The notes under the pieces are model-generated. The model saw nothing but the letters and a program-made list of their open reading frames with translations. It did no database searches and was not told where the DNA came from. This document shows, one piece after another, positions 10,817-45,901 of a stretch of 64,000 bases of DNA. The DNA is taken from positions 82,988 to 146,987 of the forward strand of contig JAKLFF010000002.1 in NCBI GenBank assembly GCA_022711335.1, in the 5' to 3' direction. The first letter of the stretch is position 1. The number at the start of each line of letters is the position of its first letter. The DNA comes from Patescibacteria group bacterium (GTDB lineage: Bacteria; Patescibacteriota; Minisyncoccia; Moranbacterales; UBA2206). The position numbers and the translations under genes are program-made.

Positions 10817-10896
10817 CCTGTTTACAGGATGCCACCCGGAGGGTGGTCAGCCTCTGGCTGAAAAACCTGCTGTCCTAACCACTAGACGATAGGGCC
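10817..10896 (-). pseudogene. Copy X: tRNA-Glu 5' half, the 30-nt insert and the anticodon 3' stem, truncated before the T-arm
   Basis: The minus strand reads GGCCCTATCGTCTAGTGGTTAGGACAGCAGG, TTTT, the same 30-nt insert, CATCCTGTAAACAGG, and then unrelated AT-rich sequence. Confidence 0.75.
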
Positions 10897-10975
10897 GCTT
10901 AACCAAAAGAAAGTGCCCTAAGGCACAATCTGACAGGCTAAATCAAATAGATTCTAACATGGAATTATTGCCTGG

Positions 10976-11665
10976 TCAATCATTATCGCAGCATAAAACG
11001 TTTTGTGCATGAAAAAAACGGCTATTTTGGGGATCTCGGATTCCGACTGCCCTTAGATGCTTCCCCAAAATATCTTCCGCTTTTCCGTCAATACGCGCAC
11101 TGCCATCAAGCTTGAGCTCTACGATTTGCCCATCCTCTTCTTCAATAACTATTTTTTCGAGAGATATGCTTTTTATCCTTCCGTCAATTGCTATTTCCTT
11201 GGGAATTTTACTTATTCCCAATCCTTTAAACATCAACTTATAAATATCTGCTAAAATAAAAACAACCATCAGAAATACGACAACACCAACAAGCGCCAGT
11301 ATGATTAGATTTGGAGACATCCCGGTCTGATAGCACAAATCAAGCTTTTTGGAAAAATAAAGCGTAAGCATCAAAATTCCGATAAAAAGGGCTACTTTTC
11401 CATAAGGGATAGTCAGAAGAAAAACTTTAAGCCCAGGAAAACCGAGAAGCAAAAATTTCATCACCCCTGTCTTTTTTAGGACAAAAAAGAAGATACTCAT
11501 TAGGAAAGCTCCTCCCAAAAGACCAGCAACCATCGCGCATTCCAGTCCCAGTTTCTTAGCTAAAACTGCCGACGGACTGGAAATACAAATCCTCTTTTTC
11601 TTGATTTCATTCATTACTCTGCTTTTCATGTCTATTTGCGATTTCTTAAGTTGTTCTTCTTCCAT
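10976..11665 (-). CDS. Membrane protein immediately downstream of the ECF sigma factor; candidate anti-sigma factor
   Basis: It has a cytoplasmic N-terminal segment of about 45 aa, then several TM helices and a C-terminal soluble domain. It is probably in the same operon as the sigma factor (its start is at 11665 and the sigma gene ends at 11690). The call rests on gene order only. Confidence 0.4.
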   Translation of the reverse strand: MEEEQLKKSQIDMKSRVMNEIKKKRICISSPSAVLAKKLGLECAMVAGLLGGAFLMSIFFFVLKKTGVMKFLLLGFPGLKVFLLTIPYGKVALFIGILMLTLYFSKKLDLCYQTGMSPNLIILALVGVVVFLMVVFILADIYKLMFKGLGISKIPKEIAIDGRIKSISLEKIVIEEEDGQIVELKLDGSARIDGKAEDILGKHLRAVGIRDPQNSRFFHAQNVLCCDND

Positions 11666-12437: not shown

Positions 12438-13538
12438 ATGATAATACTGGGCATAGAAACAACTTGTGATGAAACTGCCGCTTCCATAATCAAAGCGGAA
12501 AAGGGCAAAATTGATATTTTATCCAATATCGTTTCCTCCCAAATCGAATTACACGCCAAATGGGGAGGCGTAGTTCCAAATCTTGCAGCCAGAGAACATC
12601 TGAAAAATATCATCCCCGTCCTGAAAGAAGCGTTGGAAAAGTCGAAGAAAACGCCCGGGCAAATCGATCTGATTTCTGTCGCCAATGGACCGGGGCTTAT
12701 TCCCGCTCTTCTTATCGGAGTAAATGCTGCCAAAACATTAAGTTATATTTGGGAAAAACCGCTTATCGGAGTGCATCACATTGAAGGGCACATATACGCC
12801 AATTTCATAAATGAAATTCGTTCAATTCCCAATCCGCAATTGCCAGTTTCCAAGAAATTATTGATTAAATTTCCAGTGTTATGCCTGGTGGTTTCAGGGG
12901 GACATACTCAATTAGTCCTTATAAAAAAACATTTGGATTATCAAATCATCGGAGAAACTTTAGATGATGCGGCAGGAGAAGCTTTTGATAAAGTCGCCAG
13001 AATTTTGGGTCTAAGTTATCCTGGAGGACCAGCCGTAGCTGCTTATGCCAGTGCTTGGACATCGGATGTCCGAAAAGGACATGTGATGTCCATCGACCTG
13101 CCAAGGCCGATGATCAATTCTAAAGATTTTAATTTCTCTTTCTCCGGATTAAAAACTGCCGTGCTTTATGAAACTAAAAAACACCCTGAATTTCTTAAAA
13201 ACAAAAATTACATATCAGGGATATGCCATGAATTCCAGCAATCGGTCTGCGATGTCCTTATTTCAAAAACCATAAAAGCGGCAGCAGAATACAGGCCAAA
13301 AACCATAATGCTGGCTGGCGGAGTAAGCGCTAATCGGGAGCTGAGGAATCAACTCGGCACAACAATTGAAAAAAAACTGGGGAAAACTCTTTATAGGATT
13401 CCGGAAATAAAATATTGCGCTGACAATGCCGCCATGATTGCCGCCGCCGGATTCTACCGCTGGAAAAAAATAGGAAATAGAAAAAAGCTTCATGATAATT
13501 GGAAGACTTTGTCTGCCGATGCTAATTTAAAATTATGA
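12438..13538 (+). CDS. tsaD: tRNA N6-adenosine threonylcarbamoyltransferase TsaD (Kae1/Gcp family)
   Basis: Starts MIILGIETTCDETAASI. It has HxEGH metal-binding (GVHHIEGH) and VSGGVSAN. Confidence 0.9.
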   Translation: MIILGIETTCDETAASIIKAEKGKIDILSNIVSSQIELHAKWGGVVPNLAAREHLKNIIPVLKEALEKSKKTPGQIDLISVANGPGLIPALLIGVNAAKTLSYIWEKPLIGVHHIEGHIYANFINEIRSIPNPQLPVSKKLLIKFPVLCLVVSGGHTQLVLIKKHLDYQIIGETLDDAAGEAFDKVARILGLSYPGGPAVAAYASAWTSDVRKGHVMSIDLPRPMINSKDFNFSFSGLKTAVLYETKKHPEFLKNKNYISGICHEFQQSVCDVLISKTIKAAAEYRPKTIMLAGGVSANRELRNQLGTTIEKKLGKTLYRIPEIKYCADNAAMIAAAGFYRWKKIGNRKKLHDNWKTLSADANLKL

Positions 13539-28800: not shown

Positions 28801-31608
28801 TTAAAGGTAGCGCCCTGTCCAGCTTCTTTTGCACTTTTTGAGCCCCGAAGGATTTCCTTCATAAACTATCTCTCCGCCCCTGTTTCCGCCTTCCGGCCCA
28901 AGATCAATCACCCAATCAGAATTTTTAATCACATCTGGATTATGTTCGACAACCAAAACCGTATTGCCTTTTTCGCAAAGCGCATTGAGAACTCCCAGGA
29001 GTTTTTTAACATCCTCAAAGTGAAGCCCGATAGTCGGCTCATCTAAAATATACAAGGTTTTTCCGGCAGAACGCCGCGAAAGCTCCGTCGCCAATTTTAT
29101 CCTCTGTGCCTCTCCTCCGGATAAATTCGTTGCGCTCTGCCCCAGCTTGAGATAGCCCAGGCCTACCTCTTCCAAAGTCTTGAGTTTTTCAAAAATCAAC
29201 GGGGATTTCTTGAAAAAATGGAGCGCGTAAGAAATGCTCATATCGAGAACTTGAGCGATGTTCACTCCTTGATATTCAATATCAAGCGTTTTCTGATTAT
29301 ATCTGGTTCCGCCGCAAGTCTCACAGCGCACATACATGTCAGGAAGCATGTGCATTTCTATTTTTTTGGTCCCGTCCCCCTGGCAATCCTCGCAACGTCC
29401 GCCGCGGATATTGAAACTGAAACGGCTTGAGTCATATCCGCTATTTTTTGATTCGGGAGTTTGAGAAAACAGCTCCCGAATATGGGAAAATACTCCGGTA
29501 TACGTCGCTGCGTTGGATCTGGGAGTTCTTCCGATCGGAGACTGGTTGATGCTGATTACTTTGCCTATGTTTTCAATGCCCCTTATTTCCTTATGTTCTC
29601 CCGGAATATCTTTTGATTTATAAAAATATCTGGAAAGCGCTTTGGACAAAATGTCAGCCACTAAGGTCGATTTTCCTGATCCGGAAAGTCCGGTAATAGC
29701 CACAAAATTTCCCAGCGGTATTTTCACATTGATATTTTTGAGATTATGCTCCGTTGCTCCCCTTATTTCCAAAAACTTCCCGCTTCCTTTGCTCGGTTTC
29801 TTTTTTTTGTTATTTTTTTCCTTCTCAGTCAGGAATTTTGCCGTAAGCGTTCTGGATTTAAGAAGTTTTTTTATGTTTCCCGAAAAAATAATTTCTCCTC
29901 CAGATGTTCCCGCTCCCGGTCCCATATCAATAATCCAATCTGCCTGGCGGATTATATCTTCGTCATGTTCAACAACAATCAGAGAATTGCCGGTGTTTTT
30001 CAATTTAATCAAAGTATTTATCAGTTTCTTGGTGTCGCGGCTATGCAAGCCGATCGAAGGCTCATCGAGAACATAGATAATTCCGGAAAGTTCCGAATCC
30101 AGCTGGGTTGCCAGGCGGATTCTCTGCGCCTCTCCTCCTGAAATCGAATCTGCTCCCCGGGACAGCGATAAATAATCAAGGCCGACATTTTTGAGAGATT
30201 GCGCCCTCAAAATCATTTCTTTTATAAGCGGCGCGACTATTTCTTTTTTGGACTGGCTCAGCTTATTTTTTTCAACTTCTTTGAGAAATGCGATAAAATT
30301 ATCCGCATCCATATTAGAAACATCATCAATTGATTTTTCTGAAACTAAAATAGATAAATAATCCTTTTTCAGCCTTTTCCCGAGGCATTCCGGACAAATC
30401 TTTCTTATCATATATCTTTCCAGGTCACTTCGAACTCCAAGCGTCATGGATTCATCATATTTCTTCTTAAGCGCTGGTATTACCCCCGAAAACTTTCCGG
30501 CCGGCAAGGCAGGATCGTCGCATCCGTAAAAAATCATGTCTAAGTGCTTTCGACTCATTTTTTTGACTGGCACATTTACTGAAAATCCGTGCCTTTCGCC
30601 CAAAGTTTTCAAAATTCCTCCGCTGCCATTTAATCCGCTTTTTCCATTCGATTTTCCCCAGGCTAAAATTGCTCCTTCCGCTATCGTCAGTTTTTTATTG
30701 GGAACCAGAAGATCTTCATCTATCTCTCTTATCATCCCTAACCCAGAACATTTTATACAAGCCCCTTCCGGATTGTTAAAAGAAAAATTTTTCGGCGTTA
30801 CATCGGAAATTTTAAAATAGCATTGGTTGCAGCAAAAATCCCGATTATATAACTTTTCCGTATCATTATCAATTATTACCGACATAAAGCCTTTTCCCAA
30901 ACGAAAAGCTGTTTCCACGGAATCTAAAATTCTTTCTTTATCAGGATTATTTCTTTTGAAAGTCAGCCGGTCGATTACAATTTCAATCGCATTTTCTCCG
31001 ATATCTTTGGCTAGATTTAGAGCTTCCTGGACAGTTATTATTTTTCCGGAAAATCGCACTCTGGCATATCCCAGATGATTGACATTGCGAAGAATTTCAG
31101 CAGTATTCTTTTCTTTCTCTAAAATTCTTGAGAGGATCACTAGCTGCGTATTATCCGGCATTTTTAAAATCTCTTCCAGTATTTCCCGGTTGCTGACTCT
31201 TTTGAGAACATTTCCGCAATTTGGGCAATAGGGCGTTCCGACCTTGGAAAATAAAACGCGGAGATAGTCATATATCTCCGTCAGTGTTCCTACGGTAGAA
31301 CGAGGGCTTTTTGTCACACTTTTTTGGTCTATGGAAATAGTCGGGCTTAAATTTTCAATTTTGTCCACATCCGGCTTGGCCGAAACGTCCATAAATTGGA
31401 GTGCATAGCTCGACATGCCTTCAAGATAGCGGCGGTTGCCTTCCGCATAAATCACGTCGAAGGCCAGCGAAGATTTCCCTGATCCGGAAAGTCCGGTGAT
31501 GACTACTAATTTATTCTTAGGGATAGAAACGTTGATGTTTTTAAGATTGTTCGTACGAGCTCCGTAAACGTTAATGCTTTCCTTGGATTTTAAAATATTT
31601 TTAGGCAT
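28801..31608 (-). CDS. uvrA: Excinuclease ABC subunit A (UvrA), canonical paralogue
   Basis: Has two ABC ATPase modules ([12 protein letters not shown] and [11 protein letters not shown]), [12 protein letters not shown] twice and zinc-finger Cys clusters. The start was chosen at [18 protein letters not shown]. Confidence 0.9.
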
Positions 31609-31708
31609 ATGCGTAAAGAAGCAGCTTTTTAACAAAATGCGCTACTAAAGAAGCATTTTACATTAGTTTTAGAGATTTGTAAAGAAGGCTGTCAGCTTAA
31701 ATTCTGAG

Positions 31709-33043
31709 CTAGTCCAGTATGCTTTTTTTTCTTAATTTTTTATGATAAGTTATTGCAAACCGATGCGCCTCATCACGCACTTGTTCAATTATAGTTTTTG
31801 GAATTTCTGGAACGGTTCCAAAAGAATAAATGTCTAATTTTTTTCGAGACAGTCCTTTGGCCACGGCTACAAGCGGAATTTCCAGATGGAAGTTGCGAAG
31901 AATTTTTCGAGCCATGTTTAAATGCCCTTTTCCGCCGTCAAGGATTATAAGATTAGGTTTCGGCCAGTTATTTTTGAGTCTTCGCGCCAACACCTCTTCC
32001 ATAGCGCCAACATCATTGGCGCCGAAAACAGTTTTAATCCTGAATTTCCGGTATTGGGATTTATTTGGCTTTATTTCGCCTTCCGAATTATCAAAAACCG
32101 CCATCGATCCAACAGAATATTTCCCAGAGATATTGGATATATCATAACCCTCTACTCGGAATTTTTCTTTTTTGTTATATGTTTCATGTTCTATGTTATA
32201 TGACATGAGCGCTATGTCTTGTATGTGCTGCAGCGCAAAAATTTTATTCCTCACCTCTCCTGCTTTTTCAAATTCATGCTTCCGGCTATATTCTTCCATC
32301 TCTTTTTTCATTCTGCTAATCAAACTTTTTTTCTTTCCTTCCAAAATCATCTGGATTCCCCGAATATTTTTCTGATAATCTTCTCTTGTAATTGCCCCAT
32401 CATACGGCCCGGGGCACAATCCTATTTGATAATCCAAGCAGCCCTTTTCCGTTTTTTGCGGCCTGGCGTGATATGGAAAAATTTTCCTTAATATTTTTAG
32501 AGCTGTTTCAATTTGGTGTTTTGACGTGTACGGACCGTAGATTTTTTTATATTGTATTTTTTGTAGGGACAGACCTTGTGTCTGTCCTTTCCGGGCGGAT
32601 GCAAGATCCGCCCCTACGTTTTTATCTAAATCCGTCTTCCTCATCACCACAAATCTTGGCCATTCTTCTTTTGTAACAGCCACGTAACAAAATGACTTAT
32701 CATCTTTCCCGTCTACATTGCATTTCGGCTGGAATTTCTTGATCAGTTCCTGCTCCAAAATATAGGCTTCGAGAACCGTGTCGGTTTTTCTGATTTCCAA
32801 GTCTTTCACTTCAGAAATGAACATTTCAATGGGCCGATTTCCATATCCCATTGATCGTAGGGACAGACCTTGTGTCTGTCCTTTCCGGGCGGATACAAGA
32901 TCCACCCCTACAAAATACGACCCGACCCGATCTTTCAAGCTCCCCGCCTTCCCCACATACAAAATCTTCCCGAATATATCCTTAAAAATATACACGCCAG
33001 GCGAAAATGGAAGATATTTGAGTTTTTTATTCAGATTTAACAT
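31709..33043 (-). CDS. uvrC: Excinuclease ABC subunit C (UvrC), short form lacking the C-terminal HhH, with two in-frame repeat insertions
   Basis: Has the GIY-YIG domain YLPFSPGVYIFKD...LYVGKAGSLKDRVGSYF, a UVR-like region and the C-terminal RNase H-like endonuclease region EGYDISNISG. The inserted peptides VGVDLVSARKGQTQGLSLRSM and VGADLASARKGQTQGLSLQKI derive from the 55-bp repeats. Confidence 0.8.
   Translation of the reverse strand: MLNLNKKLKYLPFSPGVYIFKDIFGKILYVGKAGSLKDRVGSYFVGVDLVSARKGQTQGLSLRSMGYGNRPIEMFISEVKDLEIRKTDTVLEAYILEQELIKKFQPKCNVDGKDDKSFCYVAVTKEEWPRFVVMRKTDLDKNVGADLASARKGQTQGLSLQKIQYKKIYGPYTSKHQIETALKILRKIFPYHARPQKTEKGCLDYQIGLCPGPYDGAITREDYQKNIRGIQMILEGKKKSLISRMKKEMEEYSRKHEFEKAGEVRNKIFALQHIQDIALMSYNIEHETYNKKEKFRVEGYDISNISGKYSVGSMAVFDNSEGEIKPNKSQYRKFRIKTVFGANDVGAMEEVLARRLKNNWPKPNLIILDGGKGHLNMARKILRNFHLEIPLVAVAKGLSRKKLDIYSFGTVPEIPKTIIEQVRDEAHRFAITYHKKLRKKSILD
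32563..32617. repeat. 55-bp double-hairpin repeat, copy 1, in-frame within uvrC
   Basis: GTAGGGACAGACCTTGTGTCTGTCCTTTCCGGGCGGATGCAAGATCCGCCCCTAC. Confidence 0.8.
32857..32911. repeat. 55-bp double-hairpin repeat, copy 2, in-frame within the uvrC GIY-YIG region
   Basis: GTAGGGACAGACCTTGTGTCTGTCCTTTCCGGGCGGATACAAGATCCACCCCTAC. Confidence 0.8.
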
Positions 33044-36000
33044 TATTTTTTATTTTCAAAAATTTCCTCAAATACTTCCCCGTCCAGCTTTCTTTGTGAT
33101 ATTTGACTACTTCTTCCGGCGTGCCGGTTACCACAATTTTTCCGCCGTTTTCTCCGCCTTCCGGTCCAAGGTCGATTATCCAATCGGCAGTTTTTATCAC
33201 ATCCATATTATGCTCGATTACCACTACGCTATTTCCTGAATCAACCAGCCTATTTAGCACATTTAATAATTTTTTTATATCGTCGAAATGAAGTCCGGTG
33301 GTCGGCTCGTCAAGAATATACAGTGTATCGCCGGTAGCACGTCTCGCTAGTTCTGTCGCCAGTTTTATTCTCTGCGCTTCTCCGCCAGAAAGAGTTGTGG
33401 CCGATTGGCCGAGTTTGATATATCCCAGCCCAACTTCATCCAAGATTTTAAGCTTAGCATAGATTTCCGGATAATTTTCAAAAAATATTTTTCCTTCTGC
33501 CACTGTCATTTCAAGAACTTCAGCAATATTTTTGCCCTTATATTTCACTTGGAGCGTTTCGCTATTATATCTCTTTCCGTGGCAGACATCGCACGGCAGA
33601 TAAACATCCGGCATAAATTGCATTTCGATCTTGAGATATCCATCGCCCTTGCAATTATCGCACCGGCCTCCATTCACGTTGAACGAAAATCTTCCCGGCC
33701 CATACCCTTTTCCTTTGGCATCACGCGTAGCAGAAAACAATTCTCTTATCGGCGTAAATAATCCTGTATAAGTAGCTGGATTGGAGCGTGGAGTGCGTCC
33801 GATCGGCGACTGGTCGATCATTATGACTTTATTAATATGATGCATTCCGATAATCTCACTGTGGCTCCCCGGCCTGTCCAAAGAACGCATGATTTTGGAA
33901 GCCAAGGATTTATAAAGAACATCTTCAACCAAAGTGGATTTCCCGGAGCCGGAAACTCCAGTAACACAAGTAAAAACTTTCAGGGGAAATTCAGCCGTAA
34001 TATTTTTCAAATTATTTTCGCGCGCTCCGCGAACAGTTATCCATTTTTTGTTCTTGATTGGACGCCGGAAAGCCGGAATTTCTATTTTCAAATCACCCCG
34101 AAGATAGGCTGCTGTCAAAGATTTTTTGTTTTTTATAACTTCTTTTGGAGAACCTTCGACAATAATTTTTCCGCCTAAATTTCCAGCGCCGAGTCCAATA
34201 TCAACAATGTGATCAGCGGCGCGAATTGTCTCTTCATCATGTTCGACAACAATCACGCTATTGCCAACATTTTTAAGTCTCAAAAGGGTTTCCAATAATT
34301 TAGAATTATCCCTAGCATGAAGCCCAACCGATGGTTCATCTAAAATATATAATACTCCGACTAGTTGCGATCCGATCTGCGAAGCCAAGCGGATTCTTTG
34401 CGTTTCTCCTCCGGCCAAAGTGTTGGCCGCGCGTCCTAAAGTTAGATATCCTAATCCGACATTTTCCAAAAAACCCAGCCGATTTTGAATTTCCTTCAAA
34501 ATTCTTCCAGCAATTATTTCTTCACGCTTGTTTATTTTAAGTTCTTTAAAAAATTTTAAAGTTAGATCAACGCTGTCTCTTGACAGCTCATATATATTTT
34601 TATTCCCAACTGTAACTAATAGCGCTTCTTTTTTATATCTCGACCCATGGCAAACCGAACAGGGGTTTTGCGACATATATTTTTCAATATCTTGCCGCAC
34701 TGCTTCTGAATCCGTTTTTTTATAACGATCTTCAAGATAGCCGATAACACCTCTCCATTCCATATTATATTTCCAAACTGAACCGCTTTTTGACCGCAAA
34801 GAAACAGCGACATCCTCATAATCATATTCGTAGGTCAATTCACCTTTATTTTTATTATTATCATCGGTTTCCGGCCTGCCATGCATCAATAAATTAAAAT
34901 CATCGCTCGATAAATCGCGAAGGCGTATATTTTCAGAAATATGAAAATGATTGGCTACGGATCGCAAAATTGTTCCCTGCCAATTATTCTTTTTATAGCT
35001 CCACGGCATTAGTCCCCCTTGAGATATGGTTTTATTTATGTCCGGAGCCACCAGATCCGGATCAATTTCCCGCTTTGTGCCCAAGCCCTCGCAAGCCGGG
35101 CAAGCGCCATAGGGGCTATTAAAGGAGAAGAGTCTCGATTCGAGCGCTGGAAAAGTTATTTCGTGGATCGGACAGGATAGGTTTTGATTGAAAATTAGAT
35201 CTTCTTTTTTTTGATTTTTTGCCCTACTCAGTAAATTTTGCTCTGCAAAATTATTTTTCTTACTAGAAAAATACTCAACAGGATGAATTTTCACTAAGCC
35301 TTGCGAAAGTTTCAACGCCTTTTCCACATCCTCAAAAATTCTGGAAATATTCCGATCACTGATTTCCACTTCATCAACAACTATATCTATGTCGTGCTTT
35401 TTATACCGTTCTAACTTTATTTTCTCGCTGATTTTAGAATCCAGTTCGATTTTTTTTCCATTCACATAGGCTCCGGAAAATCCGCGCCGGAACATTTCAC
35501 TCATCATCGTGGAATATTCACCTTTCCGACTGCGAACAACCGGAGACAAAATTTCTATCTTACAATTATTTTGTAGGGACAGGCCTTGTGCCTGTCCTTT
35601 TTGGGCGGATACAAGATCCGCCCCTACATTTTTCCCCGTACATAAATCTAAAATCCTATCCACAATTTCATCCACTGACAATTTTTTTATTTCCTGATTG
35701 CATATGGGACAGTGCGGAATTCCGATTTTAGAATAAAGAAGCCGGAGATAATCATGGATTTCTGTCACTGTTCCCACAGTCGATCTGGGATTATGTGAAG
35801 CTGATTTTTGATCAATGGAAATGGCCGGACTCAAACCCTGAATCAGATCCACATCCGGTTTGTCCATCTGGCCCAAAAATTGGCGAGCATAAGATGACAA
35901 ACTTTCTAAATATCTTCTCTGCCCTTCAGCAAAAATGGTATCGAAAGCCAGCGTGCTCTTTCCCGAACCGCTTATGCCTGTAAAAACAATAAACTTGTTA

Positions 36001-36071
36001 CGAGGTAAGTTTAAATTTATATTTTTTAGGTTGTGCTCCCTGGCACCTCGTATAATAATTTCTTCTTCCAT
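33027..36071 (-). CDS. UvrA paralogue (UvrA2, 1014 aa) carrying an in-frame repeat insertion
   Basis: Has the UvrA architecture with two ABC modules ([23 protein letters not shown]), Zn-finger cysteines and ABC signature motifs. It contains the insert GKNVGADLVSAQKGQAQGLSLQ, which comes from the 55-bp repeat. Confidence 0.85.
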   Translation of the reverse strand: MEEEIIIRGAREHNLKNINLNLPRNKFIVFTGISGSGKSTLAFDTIFAEGQRRYLESLSSYARQFLGQMDKPDVDLIQGLSPAISIDQKSASHNPRSTVGTVTEIHDYLRLLYSKIGIPHCPICNQEIKKLSVDEIVDRILDLCTGKNVGADLVSAQKGQAQGLSLQNNCKIEILSPVVRSRKGEYSTMMSEMFRRGFSGAYVNGKKIELDSKISEKIKLERYKKHDIDIVVDEVEISDRNISRIFEDVEKALKLSQGLVKIHPVEYFSSKKNNFAEQNLLSRAKNQKKEDLIFNQNLSCPIHEITFPALESRLFSFNSPYGACPACEGLGTKREIDPDLVAPDINKTISQGGLMPWSYKKNNWQGTILRSVANHFHISENIRLRDLSSDDFNLLMHGRPETDDNNKNKGELTYEYDYEDVAVSLRSKSGSVWKYNMEWRGVIGYLEDRYKKTDSEAVRQDIEKYMSQNPCSVCHGSRYKKEALLVTVGNKNIYELSRDSVDLTLKFFKELKINKREEIIAGRILKEIQNRLGFLENVGLGYLTLGRAANTLAGGETQRIRLASQIGSQLVGVLYILDEPSVGLHARDNSKLLETLLRLKNVGNSVIVVEHDEETIRAADHIVDIGLGAGNLGGKIIVEGSPKEVIKNKKSLTAAYLRGDLKIEIPAFRRPIKNKKWITVRGARENNLKNITAEFPLKVFTCVTGVSGSGKSTLVEDVLYKSLASKIMRSLDRPGSHSEIIGMHHINKVIMIDQSPIGRTPRSNPATYTGLFTPIRELFSATRDAKGKGYGPGRFSFNVNGGRCDNCKGDGYLKIEMQFMPDVYLPCDVCHGKRYNSETLQVKYKGKNIAEVLEMTVAEGKIFFENYPEIYAKLKILDEVGLGYIKLGQSATTLSGGEAQRIKLATELARRATGDTLYILDEPTTGLHFDDIKKLLNVLNRLVDSGNSVVVIEHNMDVIKTADWIIDLGPEGGENGGKIVVTGTPEEVVKYHKESWTGKYLRKFLKIKNNVKSE
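35573..35627. repeat. 55-bp double-hairpin repeat, copy 3, in-frame within uvrA2
   Basis: GTAGGGACAGGCCTTGTGCCTGTCCTTTTTGGGCGGATACAAGATCCGCCCCTAC. Confidence 0.8.
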
Positions 36072-36088
36072 ATTTTTTAAGTTGCCTG

Positions 36089-36165
36089 CCCCGTGGTCGC
36101 CGTTGAGGCGACTTTACGGGGTGTTCTCTCGCACCTCGTATAATTATTTCGTCCATATTCATTCG
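36089..36165. repeat. 32-bp palindromic element, copy 2, followed by a duplicated uvrA2 start region (pseudo-start)
   Basis: ccccgtggtcgccgttgaggcgactttacgggg at 36089-36121. At 36128-36165, ...cgcacctcgtataattatttcgtccat repeats ...gcacctcgtataataatttcttcttccat at 36040-36071, which is the uvrA2 start codon and first 12 codons, with a few mismatches. Confidence 0.7.
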
Positions 36166-36185
36166 TACATTCGTATATTTGTATT

Positions 36186-36222
36186 AGATTCGTAATTCGT
36201 AGAGAAAACCAAAAACATTCCC
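36186..36222. repeat. Direct repeat 1 of AGATTCGTAATTCGTAGAGAA(A/C)(A/C)CAAAAA, with tandem ATTCGTA heptads
   Basis: attcgtacattcgtatatttgtattagattcgtaattcgtagagaaaaccaaaaaca matches 38961-39005 at about 26 of 28 positions. It lies upstream of uvrA2 and downstream of lexA. Confidence 0.6.
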
Positions 36223-36291
36223 CAAATTGGGTACTCTAGTATTCAACTTTTTCTAATACACATTAGTACAACAGAATATTTTAATCAAGTT

Positions 36292-36954
36292 CTATAAGCT
36301 AACATATTTCACCGGTAAAACCTTCTTATACACTCCAGCAACAAGAATAGAGTCTGACTCGTGGATAAAAATCGGCTGATGGAAAGTGTTGGTCGAGTGC
36401 GGGAAAAGACCGATGATATCATCACTGACTTTTTTATATTTTTTAATCGTTGCCATGCCATTTATCACCGCCACCACGATTTTTCCCTCCAGCTCGTCTT
36501 TTCCTTCATATTTTTCAAAAATCACGTAGTCACCGTCATTGATGCTTGATTTGTCCATAGAATCCCCAAGCGCTTTTACGGCAAAGAGATCAGCCGGTTT
36601 GGCATTTCGAAAAAGCGCCTTTGAAATTTGAAGAAATCCATCCACATTGTCTTCCGCATAAGCCAGCGCGTCTCCGCAGGAAGCCAGGCCATAAACCGGA
36701 ATAGAAAAAATATTTTTGAAATTGGAAAAGCTTTGATTTTTAATCAGATAAATTTTTTTGTCATCATCGCGCTTGATTAAGTCTTTTCTTTCTAGAGCTT
36801 CTATTACTTGCATAATTGATTTCAGACAATCTTTCGATCCTCGTTCAGACAAAAATTTATGCAGTCCATAGCTGGTCGGATTTTCTCTTTTTTGATCAAT
36901 GTACTCCTTGATGATTTCAAGGATGCCGTTTTGTTTCGATGTTAATTTTTGCAT
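36292..36954 (-). CDS. lexA: LexA repressor (S24 peptidase, SOS regulator)
   Basis: Has an N-terminal winged-helix region (MQKLTSKQNGILEIIKEY...), the cleavage-site region GLASCGDALAY and catalytic GDSM...K (ALGDSMDKSSINDGD...ATIKKY). The ORF-track start at 37137 reads through an upstream palindromic element and is not credible. Confidence 0.82.
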   Translation of the reverse strand: MQKLTSKQNGILEIIKEYIDQKRENPTSYGLHKFLSERGSKDCLKSIMQVIEALERKDLIKRDDDKKIYLIKNQSFSNFKNIFSIPVYGLASCGDALAYAEDNVDGFLQISKALFRNAKPADLFAVKALGDSMDKSSINDGDYVIFEKYEGKDELEGKIVVAVINGMATIKKYKKVSDDIIGLFPHSTNTFHQPIFIHESDSILVAGVYKKVLPVKYVSL

Positions 36955-36974
36955 AATTTTATCAAGCACGAATA

Positions 36975-37110
36975 ACCAAATCCGAAATTCGAAACAAATT
37001 ATAATTTTCAAAATTATAAATTCAAAACTATTTCGCCTGCCTGCCGGCAAGAATTTTATGTCATTTGAATTTTGATATTGTTTCGAATTTCGCGCTTCGG
37101 ATTTCGAATT
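36975..37110. repeat. Imperfect palindrome of about 135 bp centred on the GC core cgcctgcctgccggcaag, in the lexA 5' region
   Basis: The left arm is ccgaaattcgaaacaaattataattttcaaaattataaattcaaaac. The right arm is gtcatttgaattttgatattgtttcgaatttcgcgcttcggatttcgaattt. TTCGAAT-type heptads occur on both arms. Confidence 0.55.
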
Positions 37111-37241
37111 TAAAAGTTTACAGTGGTATTCTATCACTTATATACTACCACTGTCAACCGCCTGCTGTGGATAACTCTAAAACAAAATCCCGTCTTGCGG
37201 GATTTTGGCTTTATTCTTTATTCTTAATTCTTGCTTCTTTT

Positions 37242-38228
37242 CTAGTTTCCACAACTAGCATCTGAATTAGAACCAGCTACAGTCCCTTCTCCGAATCCCG
37301 GAGAAGGAGAGGCGCTCGACAGCTCTTTTCCGCACTCGACCGGAGGATTATTGAACGCTCCACAAATAGTTTTCAAGATTGAAGCTGAATCGCGTCCAGC
37401 TGAAGCCGCCTGGCCGTTGACCACTAGGGTTGGAGAACCCTGCACTCCATATTTTTGAACATCTGTTTTATCCACATCAAAAGGAGGATAAGTTCCGTTG
37501 CTCCACTTGCTTTTATCGTTATAGCTTTCAGTAATTTTAAGCTGGGTGTCTGTCGCAGAAATACAACTTACAACCTGCGCGGCATTGACTCCCGCTGAAG
37601 TCATACAATCATTTTCTGTTCCTTGTCCTTTTTTGAGAAAACAAGTGAGATAGCTTGCCAATTTTGCCGGTTGATTTTTCTGGATGCAGTACTGGCGCAA
37701 ATTTTCATCAAGCTCTTTCTTGTCATGCATCGCATAATCGACAAATTTCAAAGTAAACTTAATTTTGTTTCCAAGAGTTTCCAAAACCGGCAAAATTCCT
37801 TTTTCTGCCTGCGTTCCATAAGGGCAATAACTCATTACAAACAAATTGACTTCCGGAACATCAGTTTTAGGAACAGCAGCATTCTTCGCCTCCTCTTTCT
37901 TGCCGCTTTCAGCTGCTTGTTTTTCTACTTCAGACATATCCATCGCCTGCGGAAAAAACTTGCTTCCGTCTTTAGTTATATAAGTATCCACGCTCTGTCC
38001 GCCAACTTTGAAAGAAACTTTATAAAGTCCGTTCTCAAGTGATGTGTCAGTCACGTCAACTTTTGTTCCCGGTTGAACCAAATTTTTTTCCACAAATTCC
38101 GTTACTTTGGTTTTGGCTCCTTCAAGACCAATGTCAGTTTGCCTTTTTGGTCCGAATTTTACATACCAGATTCCAGCCGCCAAAACACCGACTACCAATA
38201 TTAAAGCGGCAATATTGTTTTTATTCAT
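37242..38228 (-). CDS. Secreted DsbA-like thioredoxin-fold protein with a degenerate CPYG active-site motif
   Basis: Has an N-terminal signal or TM segment MNKNNIAALILVVGVLAAGIW, then ...FVMSYCPYGTQAE... and GSPTLVVNGQ, which resembles the DsbA cis-Pro loop. The single Cys in the motif is unusual. Confidence 0.5.
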   Translation of the reverse strand: MNKNNIAALILVVGVLAAGIWYVKFGPKRQTDIGLEGAKTKVTEFVEKNLVQPGTKVDVTDTSLENGLYKVSFKVGGQSVDTYITKDGSKFFPQAMDMSEVEKQAAESGKKEEAKNAAVPKTDVPEVNLFVMSYCPYGTQAEKGILPVLETLGNKIKFTLKFVDYAMHDKKELDENLRQYCIQKNQPAKLASYLTCFLKKGQGTENDCMTSAGVNAAQVVSCISATDTQLKITESYNDKSKWSNGTYPPFDVDKTDVQKYGVQGSPTLVVNGQAASAGRDSASILKTICGAFNNPPVECGKELSSASPSPGFGEGTVAGSNSDASCGN

Positions 38229-38235
38229 CTTTTGC

Positions 38236-38282
38236 TTGAGCGCATTCGAGTCATTCGAGTGTCCATTCGAATCATTCGAGTC
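38236..38282. repeat. Tandem repeat of about 9 bp (TCATTCGAG), roughly 5 units
   Basis: gcattcgagtcattcgagtgtccattcgaatcattcgagtcgcg. Confidence 0.7.
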
Positions 38283-38419
38283 GCGTTAAAGAAAGTTACT
38301 TGCTTATTTTAGCTTAATAAAAAAATTAAGGCAAGAAAAAAGGGAGCTTGCCGCTATATAAGCCGGCAGCTCCCCAAAGTTGGCGCAGACCAAGCGCATT
38401 CTGGTCTCCTTTAGAAAAT

Positions 38420-38749
38420 TTAGGAAAAATCGATTGAGATTTGACCCTGGCCATAATCAACGTATTTCTCCTGCCTAGCATATCCAGCAGGAAGTTGATT
38501 GAGTTCCGGACCCAGTTCCATAGGAGGTTCGGGTTTCAGGCAAATTTCTCTATATCTGCAATTTGTCTGGTCGCAAAAGCCAGACGCTTTTGCAAAACAA
38601 TCGAAATTGCCTTCGGCCAGTTGCTGTTTTCTGTATGTTCTTGCCAGAGCCTCTTTTGTGCATCGCACGCAGAGACCATGAGAATATCCCTCTACTTCAG
38701 GGTTACCCTCTCCCCATACTCTCCTGCAATTGAAGCACTGATATTTCAT
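38420..38749 (-). CDS. Cys-rich small protein (zinc-ribbon-like), locally GC-rich
   Basis: 109 aa with CFNC...CVRC and then CFAKASGFCDQTNCRYREIC. The coding GC content is visibly higher than in neighbouring genes. Confidence 0.4.
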   Translation of the reverse strand: MKYQCFNCRRVWGEGNPEVEGYSHGLCVRCTKEALARTYRKQQLAEGNFDCFAKASGFCDQTNCRYREICLKPEPPMELGPELNQLPAGYARQEKYVDYGQGQISIDFS

Positions 38750-38786
38750 CCCATCCTCCCTCTGGCTTAGCCAGAATTAAGGTTTA

Positions 38787-38858
38787 AACCAAACCAACAA
38801 GCCTAATTTGATTATTTTTATAATCCTCTTAAGCCTGTTGGTTTGGCTTATTTGTGCG
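38787..38858 (-). promoter_or_regulatory. Long stem-loop (about 17 bp stem) in the 5' region of the Cys-rich gene
   Basis: aaaccaaaccaacaagcc ... ggcttgttggtttggctt. Confidence 0.4.
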
Positions 38859-38960
38859 CCAAGCTATGAAAGAACTATTAAACTATTGAAACTTCTGATT
38901 ATACACCAAAACCGTCAAAAAGTCAATCGTTAATTATCTACAATTCGCCTGCCTGCCGGT

Positions 38961-39005
38961 AGGTAGGTATATTCGTAAAGATTCGTAATTCGTAGAGAAC
39001 AACAA
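38961..39005. repeat. Direct repeat 2 of AGATTCGTAATTCGTAGAGAA..., preceded by a GC palindrome cctgcctgccggtaggtagg
   Basis: cgcctgcctgccggtaggtaggtatattcgtaaagattcgtaattcgtagagaacaacaaaaaaaca. Confidence 0.6.
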
Positions 39006-39227
39006 AAAAACACGCCTAAAGCGTGCTCAACCTGCGATCCTAAAAACAATATGTAACTTGTAATAATTAGAATACAGCATATTATTGGGTCTATTGGGTT
39101 TTATATTTATTTTTGAACCCATTGCTGATTTCAAGATATTTTCAAGATTTTAAGGAATAGCTGACGTGCCTTTATTATATACTTGGCTTATTTAAACGCA
39201 AGCCGAGTTATGCACACCCCGCCATTT

Positions 39228-39279
39228 CCCCTTCTCCCTCCGGGAGAAGGTGGTCCGCCTAGGCGGACCGGATGAGGGA
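39228..39279. repeat. Hairpin element G, copy 2, immediately downstream of the uvrB stop
   Basis: ccccttctccctccgggagaaggtggtccgcctaggcggaccggatgaggga contains the 18-bp perfect palindrome GGTCCGCCTAGGCGGACC. Confidence 0.65.
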
Positions 39280-39284
39280 AAAAT

Positions 39285-41408
39285 TTATTTTATTTGCAAC
39301 TTCCTCAGCTCCCCTATTTCATCCCGAATTATCGCCGCTTTTTCAAATTCCAGATTTCTGACTGCGTCTTTCATTTCTTTTTCCTTCTGTTTCACATATC
39401 CCGCAATATCTTCCAATGATTCCAGCTCCGAAAAATCCCGGATCACCTGCGGATTGATTTCATGATCTACAATAGACTGGATTTTCTTTTTGATGGTCTT
39501 GGGAGTAATATGATTCTTTCTATTATATTCCATCTGCAGCTTTCTTCTTCTTTCAGTTTCCGCAATCGCCCGCTTCATAGAACCGGTAATTTCATCGGCG
39601 TATAAAATTACTTTCCCGCTGACATTTCGAGCTGCCCGCCCGATGGTTTGAATAAGTGATGTTTCGCTTCGTAAAAATCCTTCCTTATCAGCATCAAGTA
39701 TGGCAACTAGCGACACTTCCGGAAGATCCAGTCCTTCGCGAAGCAGATTCACTCCGACCAAAACATCAAACTCTCCTCGCCGCAATTTTTCTAATATTCT
39801 AATCCGATCTAGCGTGTCCACCCCGCTGTGCAGATATTCCGCCTTGATTTTCGACTCTTTTAAGAAATCAGAAAGGTCTTCAGCCATTTTTTTAGTGAGC
39901 GTGGTTATCAGCACTCTTTCTTTCTTTTTCATTACTTCCTTAATTTCTTCCGTCACGTCCTTTACTTGTCCACGAGTCGGCTTGATTTCCAGTTCCGGAT
40001 CAATGAGTCCTGTAGGACGAATAATCTGTTCGACTACATTATTCCCCTTCTCCCTCCGGGAGAAGGTGGCCCGCTTAGCGAGACGGATGAGGGAGGAGTT
40101 CTGTGTTTTATCCCTCTCCTTCCCTTCGGGCATCCTCTCCCTAAGGGAGAGGAGGATTTTTTTAGATTTTTCCAATTCATACTTCCCGGGAGTCGCCGAT
40201 GTAAAAACTACTTGATTTATCTTCTGCTCAAATTCACTAAATTTGAGGGGACGATTGTCATAAGCTGAAGGAAGCCTAAAGCCATTGTCTATAAGAGCTG
40301 TTTTCCGAGCATGATCTCCATTATACATTCCATTTAACTGCGGAATAGTTACATGCGACTCATCTATTACTATTAGAAAGTCCTCCGAAAAATAGTCGAT
40401 AAGAGCATACGGCGGTTCGCCTTTTTTTCTGTCAGTTAAATATAAAGAGTAATTTTCAATTCCATTACAATATCCGATTTCGCGCATCATCTCCAGATCT
40501 TGCCTGGTTCTTCTAGAAAGTCTCTCGGCTTCCAAAATTTTATTGTTATCCTGCAAATATTTGAGCTGTTCTTCCAATTCATTCTCTATTTTCTTAAGCG
40601 CTTCTTCCATCACCGGTTCCGGCACCACGAAATGCTTGGCCGGATAAATCAAAGTTTTTTCCAGCTTTCCCAGCTCTTCGCCTGTCAGAAAATCATACTC
40701 TTGGATTTTAATAATCCTATCTCCTTCAATATTTATTCTAGTCACCACTTCTCTGCCTGGAGTCATAATTTCTAAAGTGTTTCCAGTGAAACGGAATTTT
40801 CCGCGGCTTAATAAATCGCTCCGGTTGTATTGCATGTCAATCAATCTTTTTATCGTCTTTTCACGATCAAATCCTAAGGCGAGGCCTTTGGATTCCAAAG
40901 GCCTCGCCTTAGGATTGACTTTTAATTCCAGCGCGATATCCCGATAATATTCCGGCGATCCCAAGCCATAGATGCAAGAAACTGAAGCGCAGATGATTAC
41001 ATCCCGGCGCGAAAGTAATGCCGCCGTGGAAGCATGGCGCAACCGGTCAATTTCTTCATTAATCTGGGCTTCTTTTTCAATGTAAGTATCAGTTGAAGCA
41101 ATGTAGGCTTCCGGCTGATAATAGTCATAATAAGAAACAAAATACTCCACGGCGTTTTTTGGGAAAAAAGTGCGAAACTCCTGAGCCAGCTGCGCCGCGA
41201 GAGTCTTGTTGGGTGCGATTACCAAAGTCGGTTTTTGCACCTTTTCAATCACATTGGCAATGGTAAAAGTCTTTCCTGACCCTGTCACGCCCAAAAGCGT
41301 CTGAAATTTCTGTCCGGACCGAAGACCTTCCGCCAGTTTTAAAATAGCCTGCGGTTGGTCGCCTTCAGGCTTAAATTTTGAATTTATTTTAAATTTATTA
41401 ACATTCAT
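39285..41408 (-). CDS. uvrB: Excinuclease ABC subunit B (UvrB) with an in-frame insert of about 40 aa
   Basis: Has Walker [11 protein letters not shown], helicase motifs, the UvrB beta-hairpin region and the C-terminal UVR domain. The insert [42 protein letters not shown] lies between SATPG...ELE and [10 protein letters not shown]. Confidence 0.9.
40044..40156. repeat. Hairpin element G, copy 1 (about 113 bp), in-frame inside uvrB
   Basis: ccccttctccctccgggagaaggtggcccgcttagcgagacggatgagggaggag...cctctccctaagggagaggagg shares about 50 nt with 39228-39279. Confidence 0.7.
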
Positions 41409-41419
41409 AACACGGATTT

Positions 41420-42460
41420 TTATAAATACTTGTCTAGCTTTTTAATCTTCATCTCCTTCACAAGCTCTGAAATCCGCACCACATTGTCTTTATGCACCAC
41501 TACAATCGCATCTTCGGTGTTGACTACCACCATGCCCTTAAGATCAACAGTGGCCACCACTTTTTTATTTTCCAGATTATAAATCAAACTATCTGTTGTT
41601 CCTAGATTATATACATTTCCTTTGGTCACATTTCCTTCGCTGGATTCTTCAAGGGCTTCCTTGAGCGCATAAAGCGTTCCCGGATCGCTCCAGCCCATAT
41701 TGGTTTTAAGAATAACCGCGTTTTTGAGATCTACTTTTTCAATAATCGCATTGTCAAAAGAAAGTTTGGGGCACTTATCATATCTTCCGGCCGTTACACA
41801 GTTCCAAATTTCCGGTGCCAGTTTTTTGTAACAACTTGTAATAAATTCCAAAGAAGTAATAAAATAACCGGGATTCCAGAAATAGTCACCTGATTTGAAC
41901 ATTTTGTCACAAAGCGCTTTTTTTGGCTTATATTTCCAGCCTTTGAATTTGAAATATTCCTGTTTATTTATTTCCCCGGCTTTTTCCCCGACATGAATCC
42001 AGCCCAGGTTGTTATTGGCAAACCGGGGACGTTCGGCCATGAAAATAAACAGACGAGAATCTTTTTCAATCAGTTTTTTTCCCATTTTAAGTCCATCTCG
42101 AAATTCACTAACACGATCCATTAAATGGTCCGCCCAGACAATCGCCACTGGGCCAGAGTATTTCATTTTGTTCAACTTATTCACTGCAAAACAGACTGCC
42201 GGGCCAACATCCCGCCGGGCCGGTTCTATAAAAATATTTTTTGGGAGAAGTTTCGGCAACTGCTTCTGGATAATTTTCTGATATAATTTCGTAGTCTGGA
42301 TGTATATATTTTCAGATCCGAAGGCTGGTGCCACCCGGTCCCAAGCCAACTGGATTGTAGATTTTCCGTTAAATATCTGGTCAAATTGCTTGGGCGAATT
42401 TTCCCTTGATAATGGCCACATCCTGGTTCCGATTCCGCCTGCAAATATAACTACTTTCAT
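41420..42460 (-). CDS. Mannose-1-phosphate guanylyltransferase (GDP-mannose pyrophosphorylase)-like nucleotidyltransferase
   Basis: Has the N-terminal [23 protein letters not shown] nucleotidyl-transferase signature and a C-terminal left-handed beta-helix-like region. Confidence 0.75.
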
Positions 42461-45780: not shown

Positions 45781-45803
45781 ATTTTCCTGCCTACCGGTAG
45801 GCA
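45781..45803. repeat. Degenerate copy of the GC palindrome family (cctgcctaccggtaggcatgg)
   Basis: Related to the palindromes at 3166-3193, 37033-37050 and 38944-38965. Confidence 0.5.
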
Positions 45804-45901
45804 TGGGATATTTATATTTTAATATAATATTATTTTTAATTAACTTTTTTAATTTTTAACCAACCTGCTTATAATCAATAAGCATCTTGCTTGATAAATT
45901 T

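Follow-up and report, generated by a model that had tools for sequence, protein, structure and literature searches.

BoxC, PIT, and TMECO are intrastrand-triplex repeats (Bachellier; Hoyne & Maher 2000; Holder et al. 2015, PMC4666352). Their units have a class II pyrimidine-purine-mirror layout with 9-nt G/C-rich arms and occur singly and as inverted pairs, of which E. coli has five ("palindromic TMECO"). The loops are less conserved than the arms, and changes between close strains are concentrated in the element. A stable triplex was demonstrated in vitro for TMECO oligonucleotides, and local instability was reported, but the triplex of E. coli PIT/TMECO was undetected in vivo (PMC4666352). 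Since the 1990s, no function or means of spread has been known for the family, and in its best-studied host, E. coli MG1655, it was described from intergenic DNA only. RPEs (Ogata et al. 2000; review PMC10969869) are small palindromic repeats of ~150 bp, restricted to Rickettsia, that lie in-frame in conserved genes of a reduced, gene-dense genome; each has a family-conserved peptide, and the host protein presumably tolerates the insertions at permissive sites. REP/REPIN units, which are mobilized by RAYT, are short G+C-rich palindromes found as singlets and as inverted doublets that fold into one long hairpin. MITEs (Correia, Nezha, and ERIC) are non-autonomous small repeats that may land in genes, sometimes as in-frame fusions.

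Here, we propose, with a probability of roughly 0.8, that the repeat element in the uvrB gene of an uncultivated, ultra-small Patescibacteria group bacterium is a variant of the BoxC/PIT/TMECO repeats, a non-coding and structure-defined element that is now part of the uvrB frame. In the 64-kb stretch of DNA that was analyzed (the window), it occurs as TMECO does, in a doublet (40046-40153) and a singlet (39230-39278). It differs from TMECO in its host, a CPR bacterium of 40% GC, and in its second loop, which is a self-folding hairpin of 12-19 nt in place of 3 nt. TMECO of E. coli MG1655 is always intergenic, whereas two of the three units in the window lie in the uvrB ORF and are translated. 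As with RPEs, the element is inserted in-frame into a conserved gene and is absent from orthologues, but it is of a cross-phylum triplex type whose frames differ and whose peptide is not conserved. The mirror-symmetric third arm is foreign to REP; moreover, the triplex units lack the GTAG-type 5' tetranucleotide, and the unit is found across phyla, whereas REP is species-specific. Unlike MITEs, the element has no transposase-matching terminal inverted repeats, and no target-site duplication was seen when eight filled junctions, with A-rich flanks, were compared with one empty site. The triplex family is unlinked to transposons or phages.

Triplex-motif units in uvrB and past its stop codon

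The features of the locus are listed below with the strand, where one applies, and the basis of the assignment.

39008-39028, minus strand: terminator-like hairpin with T-run, the better candidate for the uvrB terminator (terminator scan)
39230-39278, plus strand: downstream single unit of the U1 type, CCTTCTCCC TCC GGGAGAAGG TG-GGTCCGCCTAGGCGGACC GGATGAGGG (repeat alignment and triplex scan)
39252-39269: perfect 18-nt palindrome, equal to loop 2 of the downstream unit (palindrome scan)
39285-41408, minus strand: uvrB CDS, the host gene, 707 aa (ORF list, Pfam, and PDB matches)
40044-40157: repeat element in the uvrB frame, two triplex-motif units that form an inverted pair (doublet) (sequence, triplex scan, and orthologue comparison)
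40046-40093, plus strand (uvrB template strand): unit U1, class II triplex motif (triplex-motif scan)
40046-40054, plus strand: Y arm of U1, CCTTCTCCC, followed by the loop TCC
40058-40066, plus strand: R arm of U1, GGGAGAAGG
40067-40084, plus strand: loop 2 of U1, with its own small hairpin
40085-40093, plus strand: mirror (reverse-Hoogsteen) arm of U1, GGATGAGGG
40094-40111: A/T-rich spacer between U1 and U2 (sequence)
40112-40153, minus strand (coding strand): unit U2, class II triplex motif, TCCTCTCCC TTA GGGAGAGGA TGCCCGAAGGGA AGGAGAGGG (triplex-motif scan)
40870-40916: second in-frame uvrB insert, a perfect 47-bp palindrome with 23-nt arms that are 100% complementary, unrelated to the triplex units

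The domain search of the 707-aa ORF gave the Pfam domains ResIII, UvrB_inter, Helicase_C, UvrB, and UVR, and the best PDB matches were UvrB (E=1e-242). The alignment with the solved structures consists of two blocks, residues 5-415 and 457-702, and the ~40 residues between them are unaligned. The region from SATP to EQIIRPTG is 40 aa longer than in the relative P0006 (655 aa), whose site is empty. Both comparisons confirm the original prediction that ~40 residues are added between conserved UvrB blocks. The element (about 113 bp) is translated within the ORF as a 42-letter peptide. Its predicted kinship with a copy past the stop codon also held: a direct repeat of 37 nt (39226-39262 and 40042-40078) has 95% identity, and in the gapped alignment of 39226-39279 with 40042-40094, the similarity runs on through GGATGAGGGA. 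Exactly two instances of the core CTTCTCCCTCCGGGAGAAG are present in the window, against an expectation of 0 from shuffles. The perfect palindrome claimed for the downstream copy was found as GGTCCGCCTAGGCGGACC.

In each unit, a single strand provides three arms of 9 nt: one of pyrimidines, its Watson-Crick purine partner, and a G/A/T arm that mirrors the latter. A class II intrastrand triplex has these three arms on one strand with at least 6-8 triads. The window contains three such motifs only (39230-39278, 40046-40093, and 40112-40153), with 9-10 perfect triads, and none was found in 30 shuffles. U1 has no mismatched triad, and the triplex-motif scan gave no match in 30 dinucleotide shuffles. 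The downstream unit ends 6 nt from the uvrB stop codon. Loop 1 has 3 nt, but loop 2, with 12 nt in U2 and 18-19 nt in the U1-type units, exceeds the ITxF limit of 1-6 nt for both loops; the long loop folds into its own hairpin. Judging from its sequence, a single-stranded unit can fold back twice to give a purine-motif (class II) triplex of G*G.C, A*A.T, and T*A.T triads. As one strand, the in-gene doublet is predicted to form a single long hairpin of -62.9 kcal/mol (z=-5.4), a ViennaRNA energy, triplexes being outside the model of that program. At CPR loci, a perfect mirror arm flanks 20 of the 22 pyrimidine/purine hairpins on one side, compared with 5% when arms of other hairpins served as the control.

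The identical 707-aa UvrB is encoded on 14 contigs from NCBI, ENA, and JGI assemblies, and two independent assemblies show one difference from the window in 4124 nt. Because these contigs and assemblies agree, the arrangement of the insert is not an assembly artefact. The near-identical strain L001 has seven differences that are unique among the assemblies, and all seven are within the two triplex elements, as would fit local instability; elsewhere, it has one difference in 2124 nt, common to two other assemblies. The A/T-rich spacer holds two of six L001 differences, and four of six changes alter the amino acid, with L to P and E to K among them.

Searches with the translated product gave little. 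The 42-aa peptide had no match in a word-indexed search and one weak repetitive match in an exhaustive HMMER search, for which it is too short and too variable, and a literature search for the FSRREKG peptide returned nothing. A permissive Rfam search of 38800-41500 yielded just chance hairpin matches to miRNA models. AlphaFold2 on a 31-sequence alignment gave a mean pLDDT of 48.6, which is too poor to place the insert as a surface loop. An integron attC site, a hammerhead-type ribozyme, and a CRISPR repeat were also considered and judged not to fit the sequence of the element.

Occurrence across phyla and conservation in relatives

The element had been claimed as a private "third repeat family". 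This did not stand, as near-identical units are present in many phyla and the element reads as a BoxC/PIT/TMECO variant. The exact hairpin 21-mer was found in at least 120 stretches from species genomes of many phyla (~1 expected by chance), and the genomes having both the 21-mer and the third arm are mostly of 61-72% GC. The third arm is located within 45 nt in 119 of 125 cross-phylum copies and is exactly GGATGAGGG in 108, against a control rate of 5%. Loop 2 is TTA, ACA, or CCG in many of the copies, which fits TMECO types A and B; 52 copies have a loop 2 of 3-5 nt, and 55 have one of 11-14 nt. The arms of the window units (CCTTCTCCC/GGGAGAAGG/GGATGAGGG) differ from those of TMECO (CCCTCNCCC/GGGNGAGGG/GGGNGAGGG), and the strict TMECO pattern, CCCTCNCCC N3-6 GGGNGAGGG N3 GGGNGAGGG, has no match in the window. 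The exact hairpin of the window resembles the family in that it occurs with TTA/CCG second loops and in pairs with consensus-matching units, a strict TMECO unit being paired with 9 of 128 cross-phylum copies. One strict match was found inside uvrB of the relative L123, at the corresponding place and adjoining the U2 orthologue.

The loop-2 hairpin GCCCGCNTAGCGGGY is conserved in metagenome contigs of 61-72% GC. The metagenome scan for the exact loop-2 variant returned high-GC bacteria almost exclusively and no other low-GC contig. In BLAST searches with the downstream unit, E. coli genomes had no counterpart and the phage collection no copy, and the plasmid matches were seven large rhizobial or xanthomonad replicons. 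Among the papers covered by a literature search, none linked CPR with MITE, REP, or triplex repeats. The BoxC/PIT/TMECO family would extend to CPR/Patescibacteria, and what is new there is that units are in-frame and translated in a highly conserved repair enzyme, in an RPE-like manner, and that the three arms are identical across a divergence that saturates synonymous sites.

Alignment of orthologues indicates a lineage-specific insert. It is absent from the PDB UvrB proteins, from diverse UvrB, and from 34 of 107 close homologues, and neither site is filled in 35 of 107 close UvrB proteins. Close Moranbacteria-like UvrB proteins either miss the insert or have other small structured repeats at the two equivalent sites, with insert lengths from 0 to 61 aa and unrelated sequences. 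The repeats at shared sites vary in orientation and in reading frame (SLIR... versus PHPP...; FSRREKVAEGRMRG versus ...ATFSRREKG), and hence the DNA rather than the peptide is the conserved unit. The amino-acid identity of UvrB with its relatives is 79%, whereas four-fold sites are 41% identical, which points to purifying selection on UvrB. The U2 copies of L123 and L125, located at the equivalent junction, are nevertheless identical in 27 of 27 arm nucleotides, and their loops differ. At the nucleotide level, the triplex arms stay unchanged while the loops and the spacer drift. Either the structure of the DNA may be under selection, or other copies may continually renew the arms; judged by sequence, identical arms across diverged genomes would suit a purely selfish element and a functional constraint equally well. 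Close relatives, with filled and with empty alleles of one site, constitute a natural test bed for triplex selection, local mutation rate, and interaction with NER proteins.

Possible origin and roles of the repeats

The element most likely arrived by copying or recombination at single-stranded DNA in A/T-rich sites. Selection would then spare only in-frame copies at permissive loops, and the gene-dense CPR genome would make such copies visible inside genes. The insert probably persists because it is a whole number of codons long, the frame in use is free of stop codons, and the junction of the two UvrB helicase halves may tolerate extra residues. It would be translated as a charged, low-complexity loop, with the remaining UvrB under strong purifying selection. 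Excision from the mRNA or translational bypass is unlikely from sequence alone, since every insert in the relatives is in-frame and stop-free.

The original prediction also named UvrA2, UvrC, and RecG as carriers of in-frame structured repeats beside UvrB. All three were found to have them, with two copies in UvrC. For the related suggestion that elements target repair genes or are tolerated in them, the support is suggestive. In a sliding fold-energy scan of the window, repair genes, with 22% of the ORF length, held 6 of the 10 in-ORF islands that fold strongly (p=0.011). Exclusivity was contradicted, as TsaD, a GT4 glycosyltransferase, and two further ORFs also have in-frame structured inserts. 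The fold-energy scan replaced a GC-island scan, which was dropped as an insert detector because many ordinary coding segments exceeded its threshold. In the relatives, nine hypervariable indel sites were found in UvrA/UvrB/UvrC and one in RNase J, LexA, SBP5, and SecG combined, and 19 of ~21 triplex motifs are in uvrA/uvrB/uvrC or just after uvrB, with none in a non-NER ORF, at loci that were chosen through UvrB. Outside CPR, a uvr gene is present at 3 of 182 element-bearing loci, where ~1 would be expected by a rough, uncomputed estimate.

Several other readings of the locus were weighed. That the filled sites go back to a single ancient insertion, which gene conversion, nested insertions, and precise deletions later overwrote, is possible but less probable than many independent insertions. 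The left junction, orientation, and frame of U2 are common to the window, L123, and L125, and the right junction of U1 is shared with L126, where a palindrome is nested inside the unit; partial deletions are also frequent at E. coli TMECO loci. However, one site can hold elements that differ in orientation or belong to unrelated families, empty sites are dispersed over the closest relatives (P0006 and P0007, 82% identical to the window protein), and L124 carries one and the same 50-nt unit at the two hot spots, a sign of a recent copy event. It is highly improbable that the 40 residues are an adaptive, lineage-specific UvrB loop with a new interaction or regulatory surface, to which the similarity of the DNA repeats would be secondary. 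The insert is in-frame and stop-free, is located at a domain junction, and is identical in the 14 contigs, which come from different samples. Against these points, relatives read the equivalent DNA element in other frames and orientations, the inserts vary from none at all to unrelated sequences, conservation is at the nucleotide level and includes third codon positions of the arms, the L001 changes are largely non-synonymous, and a non-coding copy lies outside the gene.

A functional role of the DNA itself in repair genes is also unlikely, although less so than an adaptive loop. Here, the element would be a cis-acting nucleic-acid signal, and triplex repeats would be preferentially kept in CPR NER genes with their arms under nucleotide-level selection. 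The folded DNA might mimic damage and couple uvr expression, or local mutation and recombination, to UvrA/UvrB availability. Such a signal might act as a DNA structure during transcription or replication, where it would be sensed by UvrA/UvrB or stall polymerases and so tune uvr expression, or as a fold in the mRNA that affects its translation or stability. If this were true, a 50-nt unit that is near-identical in CPR of 40% GC and Proteobacteria of 65-70% GC would represent an element that spreads horizontally and whose interaction with a host factor is conserved. The identical U2 arms in three genomes, the covariation of all three arms, the location of the relatives' motifs, and the enrichment among folding islands agree with a signal. 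On the other hand, structurally unrelated repeats occupy equivalent sites elsewhere, both sites can be empty, genes such as TsaD have structured inserts as well, the counts are biased by the choice of loci through UvrB, and the non-CPR loci have no clear NER link. RNA does not form purine-motif triplexes. According to Holder 2015 citing Maher (PMC4666352), E. coli members of the family have neither promoter nor terminator activity, and their triplex was unseen in vivo. The former statement also bears on the original prediction that the downstream 52-bp copy serves as the intrinsic uvrB terminator, which we consider very unlikely. Two G+C-rich hairpins immediately past the stop codon (-33 kcal/mol) are in line with it, but an intrinsic terminator has a G+C-rich hairpin directly followed by a T-run, and the sense strand, which reads GGGGAAATGGCGGGG, has no T/U run after either hairpin. 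The consensus scan was blank at the repeat, and its sole site within 38700-39400 was at 39028-39008, ~260 nt downstream. Furthermore, a unit of the same type is located within the uvrB ORF, where termination would be harmful. In the relative L127, a triplex unit is also present 6 nt past the uvrB stop codon, in the opposite orientation.

Other repeats in the window

The 47-bp palindrome at 40870-40916, which the original prediction had overlooked, is located at the start of the UvrA-interaction domain and is translated as a 16-letter peptide. Its minimum free energy is -43.9 kcal/mol (z=-9.9). At this site, ~12 aa are missing from the PDB UvrB proteins, and peptides related to its product were found at the equivalent site in three relatives (P0012, P0020, and P0024). 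Annotators should note that a variable "insertion" in a CPR protein may be a repeat that is translated and not a new domain. A different repeat family in the window (32544, 32838, and 35554) is flanked by GTAGGG...CCCTAC.

Three-arm units within and beside uvrB

The 707-aa UvrB contains ResIII, UvrB_inter, Helicase_C, UvrB, and UVR domains (Pfam), and its top PDB matches were UvrB chains (E = 1e-242). Judging from the names of homologues, the source organism is probably a Moranbacteria/Parcubacteria-like CPR bacterium; the DNA around uvrB has a G+C content of ~41%. The original prediction of a repeat shared between the gene and its downstream region was borne out. Positions 39226-39262 and 40042-40078 form a 37-nt direct repeat with 95% identity, the match extends through GGATGAGGGA in a gapped alignment, and its 19-nt core is confined to this pair of sites (expected 0). 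The predicted addition of ~40 residues was also confirmed, as the alignment of UvrB with solved UvrB structures is split into residues 5-415 and residues 457-702, leaving ~40 residues between them unaligned, and the segment adds 40 aa relative to an orthologue whose site is empty. The insert-bearing UvrB was found unchanged on 14 contigs (NCBI, ENA, and JGI), and the window differed from two independent assemblies by 1 base in 4124. A second in-frame insert, a perfect palindrome, was missing from the original prediction.

Features of the uvrB region
39285-41408, minus strand, uvrB ORF (707-aa UvrB)
39230-39278, plus strand, triplex unit, singlet downstream of uvrB
40046-40093, plus strand, triplex unit U1 in uvrB
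40112-40153, minus strand, triplex unit U2 in uvrB
40870-40916, second in-frame uvrB insert, perfect 47-bp palindrome with 23-nt arms, start of the UvrA-interaction domain

The three-arm scan of the 64-kb window detected exactly these three triplex units, with 9-10 perfect triads each, and none in 30 dinucleotide shuffles of the sequence. U1 and U2 lie on opposite strands, so that the copy inside the gene constitutes an inverted pair; the copy downstream is a singlet. The presence of the third (mirror) arm is diagnostic, since neither of the other two arms can form Watson-Crick pairs with it. Of the 22 pyrimidine/purine hairpins in the window and in seven related loci, 20 were accompanied by a perfect mirror arm of their own purine arm, whereas the match fell to 5% when arms were swapped between hairpins. 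Where the purine arm is GGGAGAGGG instead of GGGAGAAGG, both remaining arms covary. In single-stranded DNA, the unit would fold as a triplex. The GILT-like ORF 37242-38228 has another pyrimidine/purine hairpin (CCTTCTCCGAATCCCGGAGAAGG, 37285-37307; peptide SPSPGFGEG) close to its 3' end; no mirror arm matches this hairpin, which is possibly a decayed triplex unit.

Relationship to BoxC/PIT/TMECO

The uvrB repeat is a BoxC/PIT/TMECO-type repeat in a CPR bacterium, and its behavior in this genome is like that of a Rickettsia palindromic element. BoxC/PIT/TMECO consists of a pyrimidine arm, loop, purine arm, loop, and reverse-Hoogsteen arm, forming a class II purine-motif intrastrand triplex; TMECO oligonucleotides adopt a stable triplex in vitro, whereas none was detected in vivo (Holder et al. 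2015, PMC4666352). In E. coli MG1655, these repeats are exclusively intergenic; the family is frequently found as inverted pairs and has no link to transposons or phages (Holder et al. 2015, PMC4666352). The window units do not match the strict TMECO pattern, as their arm variant differs, and their second loop, between the purine and mirror arms, is distinct in being 12-19 nt long and self-folding. Nevertheless, the link to the family is direct: the same hairpin is found elsewhere with TTA, ACA, or CCG as the second loop, it is paired with a strict TMECO unit in nine cases among the matches listed, and uvrB of a related locus (L123) contains a strict TMECO unit adjoining the U2 orthologue. Rfam contained no family matching the element.

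The family crosses phyla. The 21-mer CCTTCTCCCTCCGGGAGAAGG, searched in one genome per species (chance expectation ~1), matched at least 120 stretches, and the hosts among the matches listed include Xanthomonadales, Rhizobiales, Geobacter, Methylomonas, Planctomycetota, Acidobacteriota, Spirochaetes, and a Pseudobutyrivibrio. Among these listed matches, a mirror-compatible 9-mer follows within 45 nt of the hairpin in 119 of 125 copies (control, 5%), and the third arm is exactly that of the window, GGATGAGGG, in 108 of 125. The long-loop form, including the loop hairpin GCCCGCNTAGCGGGY, is common in metagenome contigs of 61-72% GC; the CPR copy is thus approximately the same 50-nt unit as that of high-GC Proteobacteria.

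The downstream unit had been proposed to serve as the uvrB terminator, which is very improbable. It is a hairpin-bearing element directly past the gene, but the sense strand continues with GGGGAAATGGCGGGG and has no T-run after the unit, and a consensus scan placed the sole terminator-like site at 39028-39008. Moreover, the E. coli BoxC/PIT/TMECO relatives have neither promoter nor terminator activity (Holder et al. 2015, PMC4666352).

Occupancy, conservation, and arrival of the inserts

In a set of 107 close UvrB homologues (≥72% identity), 62 have 8 or more additional residues at the site after YExEKS, and 34 have no more than 3 there; a further site, which follows LELxV, is filled in 39, and both sites are unfilled in 35. 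The insert is derived, in-frame, and polymorphic. The sites are occupied by triplex units that vary in orientation and frame (for example, SLIR...PSPYKGEG and FSRREKVAEGRMRG), by members of the 47-bp palindrome family, by further hairpin repeats, and by a palindrome nested in a triplex unit; one relative has an identical 50-nt unit at both sites. This variety of inserts, frames, and orientations indicates that the peptide is not the conserved entity.

Several related occurrences were observed. Peptides related to the 47-bp palindrome insert (NPKVEPLESKGSTLGF) occupy the equivalent site in three homologues (P0012, P0020, and P0024). Within the window, the CCTGCCTGCCGGCAGGCAGG palindrome family lies between genes (3166-3193, 38948-38970, and 45786-45808; partial at 37036-37058); in locus L126, it is nested in triplex units at both hot spots of uvrB. 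In the uvrB hot spots of locus L127 and in the homologues P0005, P0010, P0039, and P0060, the same sites are filled by other, widespread hairpin repeats translated as ETQNFASL / DAINRVST and VIASETKQS...PRNDK, peptide strings that probably also turn up in spurious ORFs of many phyla. In locus L125, a diversity-generating-retroelement-like pair (bAvd and reverse transcriptase, 9872-11314) lies 2 kb downstream of uvrB.

Between the window and L123 and L125, UvrB shows 79% amino-acid identity with only 41% identity at four-fold sites; the host gene is therefore clearly functional, and its protein is under purifying selection. U2 is present at the same junction in both loci, where its arm nucleotides are identical (27/27) and its loops vary in length and sequence. 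This arm-specific conservation at the nucleotide level may result from selection on DNA structure or from renewal by other copies. In L001, a near-identical strain, all seven further differences fall within the two triplex elements, which fits the local sequence instability among strains that goes with BoxC/PIT/TMECO (Holder et al. 2015, PMC4666352); they could instead be a consensus artefact, the contig being short.

No target duplication was found at the insert junctions, which argues for arrival by a route other than classical transposition. The most likely route is copying or recombination where A-rich DNA is single-stranded. The insert would be translated into a tolerated loop in UvrB, and survivorship would explain the recurrent insertion sites.

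Structured repeats in repair genes and other ORFs

The original prediction that UvrC, UvrA2, and RecG also carry in-frame structured repeats held. Its suggestion of a bias to repair genes is unproven: they appear over-represented, and non-repair ORFs are also affected.

Structured repeats elsewhere in the window
32544-32617 and 32838-32911, uvrC, in-frame GTAGGG...CCCTAC double-hairpin repeat (74 nt, REP-like)
35554-35627, uvrA2, in-frame copy of the same 74-nt REP-like repeat
5396-5455, recG (~aa 433), in-frame nested-hairpin repeat CCCCGTAAAGTCGCC-loop-GGCGACCACGGGG
36080-36128, intergenic, upstream of uvrA2, second copy of the nested-hairpin repeat
6911-6980, GT4 glycosyltransferase (~aa 176-197), in-frame multi-hairpin segment (-30 to -36 kcal/mol)
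13031-13115, TsaD (~aa 198), in-frame multi-hairpin segment (-30 to -36 kcal/mol)

Pfam did not detect a GIY-YIG domain in the window UvrC, possibly because of the repeat copy at ~aa 44-69. The nested-hairpin position of RecG is missing from T. maritima RecG, and a second RecG insert of ~30 aa (345-374) contains a CAATTTT tandem tract (5146-5174). The GT4 segment lies in the interdomain linker, exactly between the two Pfam domains, and the Pfam match of TsaD is ~47 residues longer than the profile.

In the seven relatives' loci, which were selected via UvrB, about 19 of 21 triplex matches fall within uvrA, uvrB, or uvrC or immediately 3' of uvrB, and none in any other ORF. Across genomes, the same positions of UvrA (~aa 148) and UvrC (~aa 50 and ~aa 140) hold different repeat families. 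Among proteins of similar conservation, hypervariable indel sites numbered four in UvrA, three in UvrB, and two in UvrC, versus one in RNase J and none in LexA, SBP5, and SecG. When the window was scanned for fold energy without reference to any motif, 10 strongly folding islands emerged in ORFs. Six belong to repair genes, whose share of ORF length is 22% (p = 0.011, post hoc test); the others are in TsaD, the GT4 glycosyltransferase, and two small ORFs. Outside CPR, no clear link of the element to uvr genes was seen, as 3 of 182 loci had a uvr gene against ~1 expected by a rough estimate (not significant). Our reading is that colonization of this gene-dense genome by small structured repeats is general and that the repeats persist at linkers that tolerate them.

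In two non-CPR genomes, the same triplex unit lies within ~250 nt of uvrA (L052, 7922; L139, 797). The repair cluster of the window (28801-41408, one strand) comprises uvrA, uvrC, uvrA2, a LexA-like S24 peptidase, a GILT-like protein, and uvrB, and the relatives L126-L128 have the same neighborhood. Elsewhere in the window, three copies of a 72-nt segment (9419-9490, 10599-10670, and 10816-10887) overlap or adjoin tRNA-Glu (10667-10739), whose 3' part has a 39-nt duplicate at 10576-10614; the arrangement looks like tRNA-fragment duplications, for example, an integration scar.
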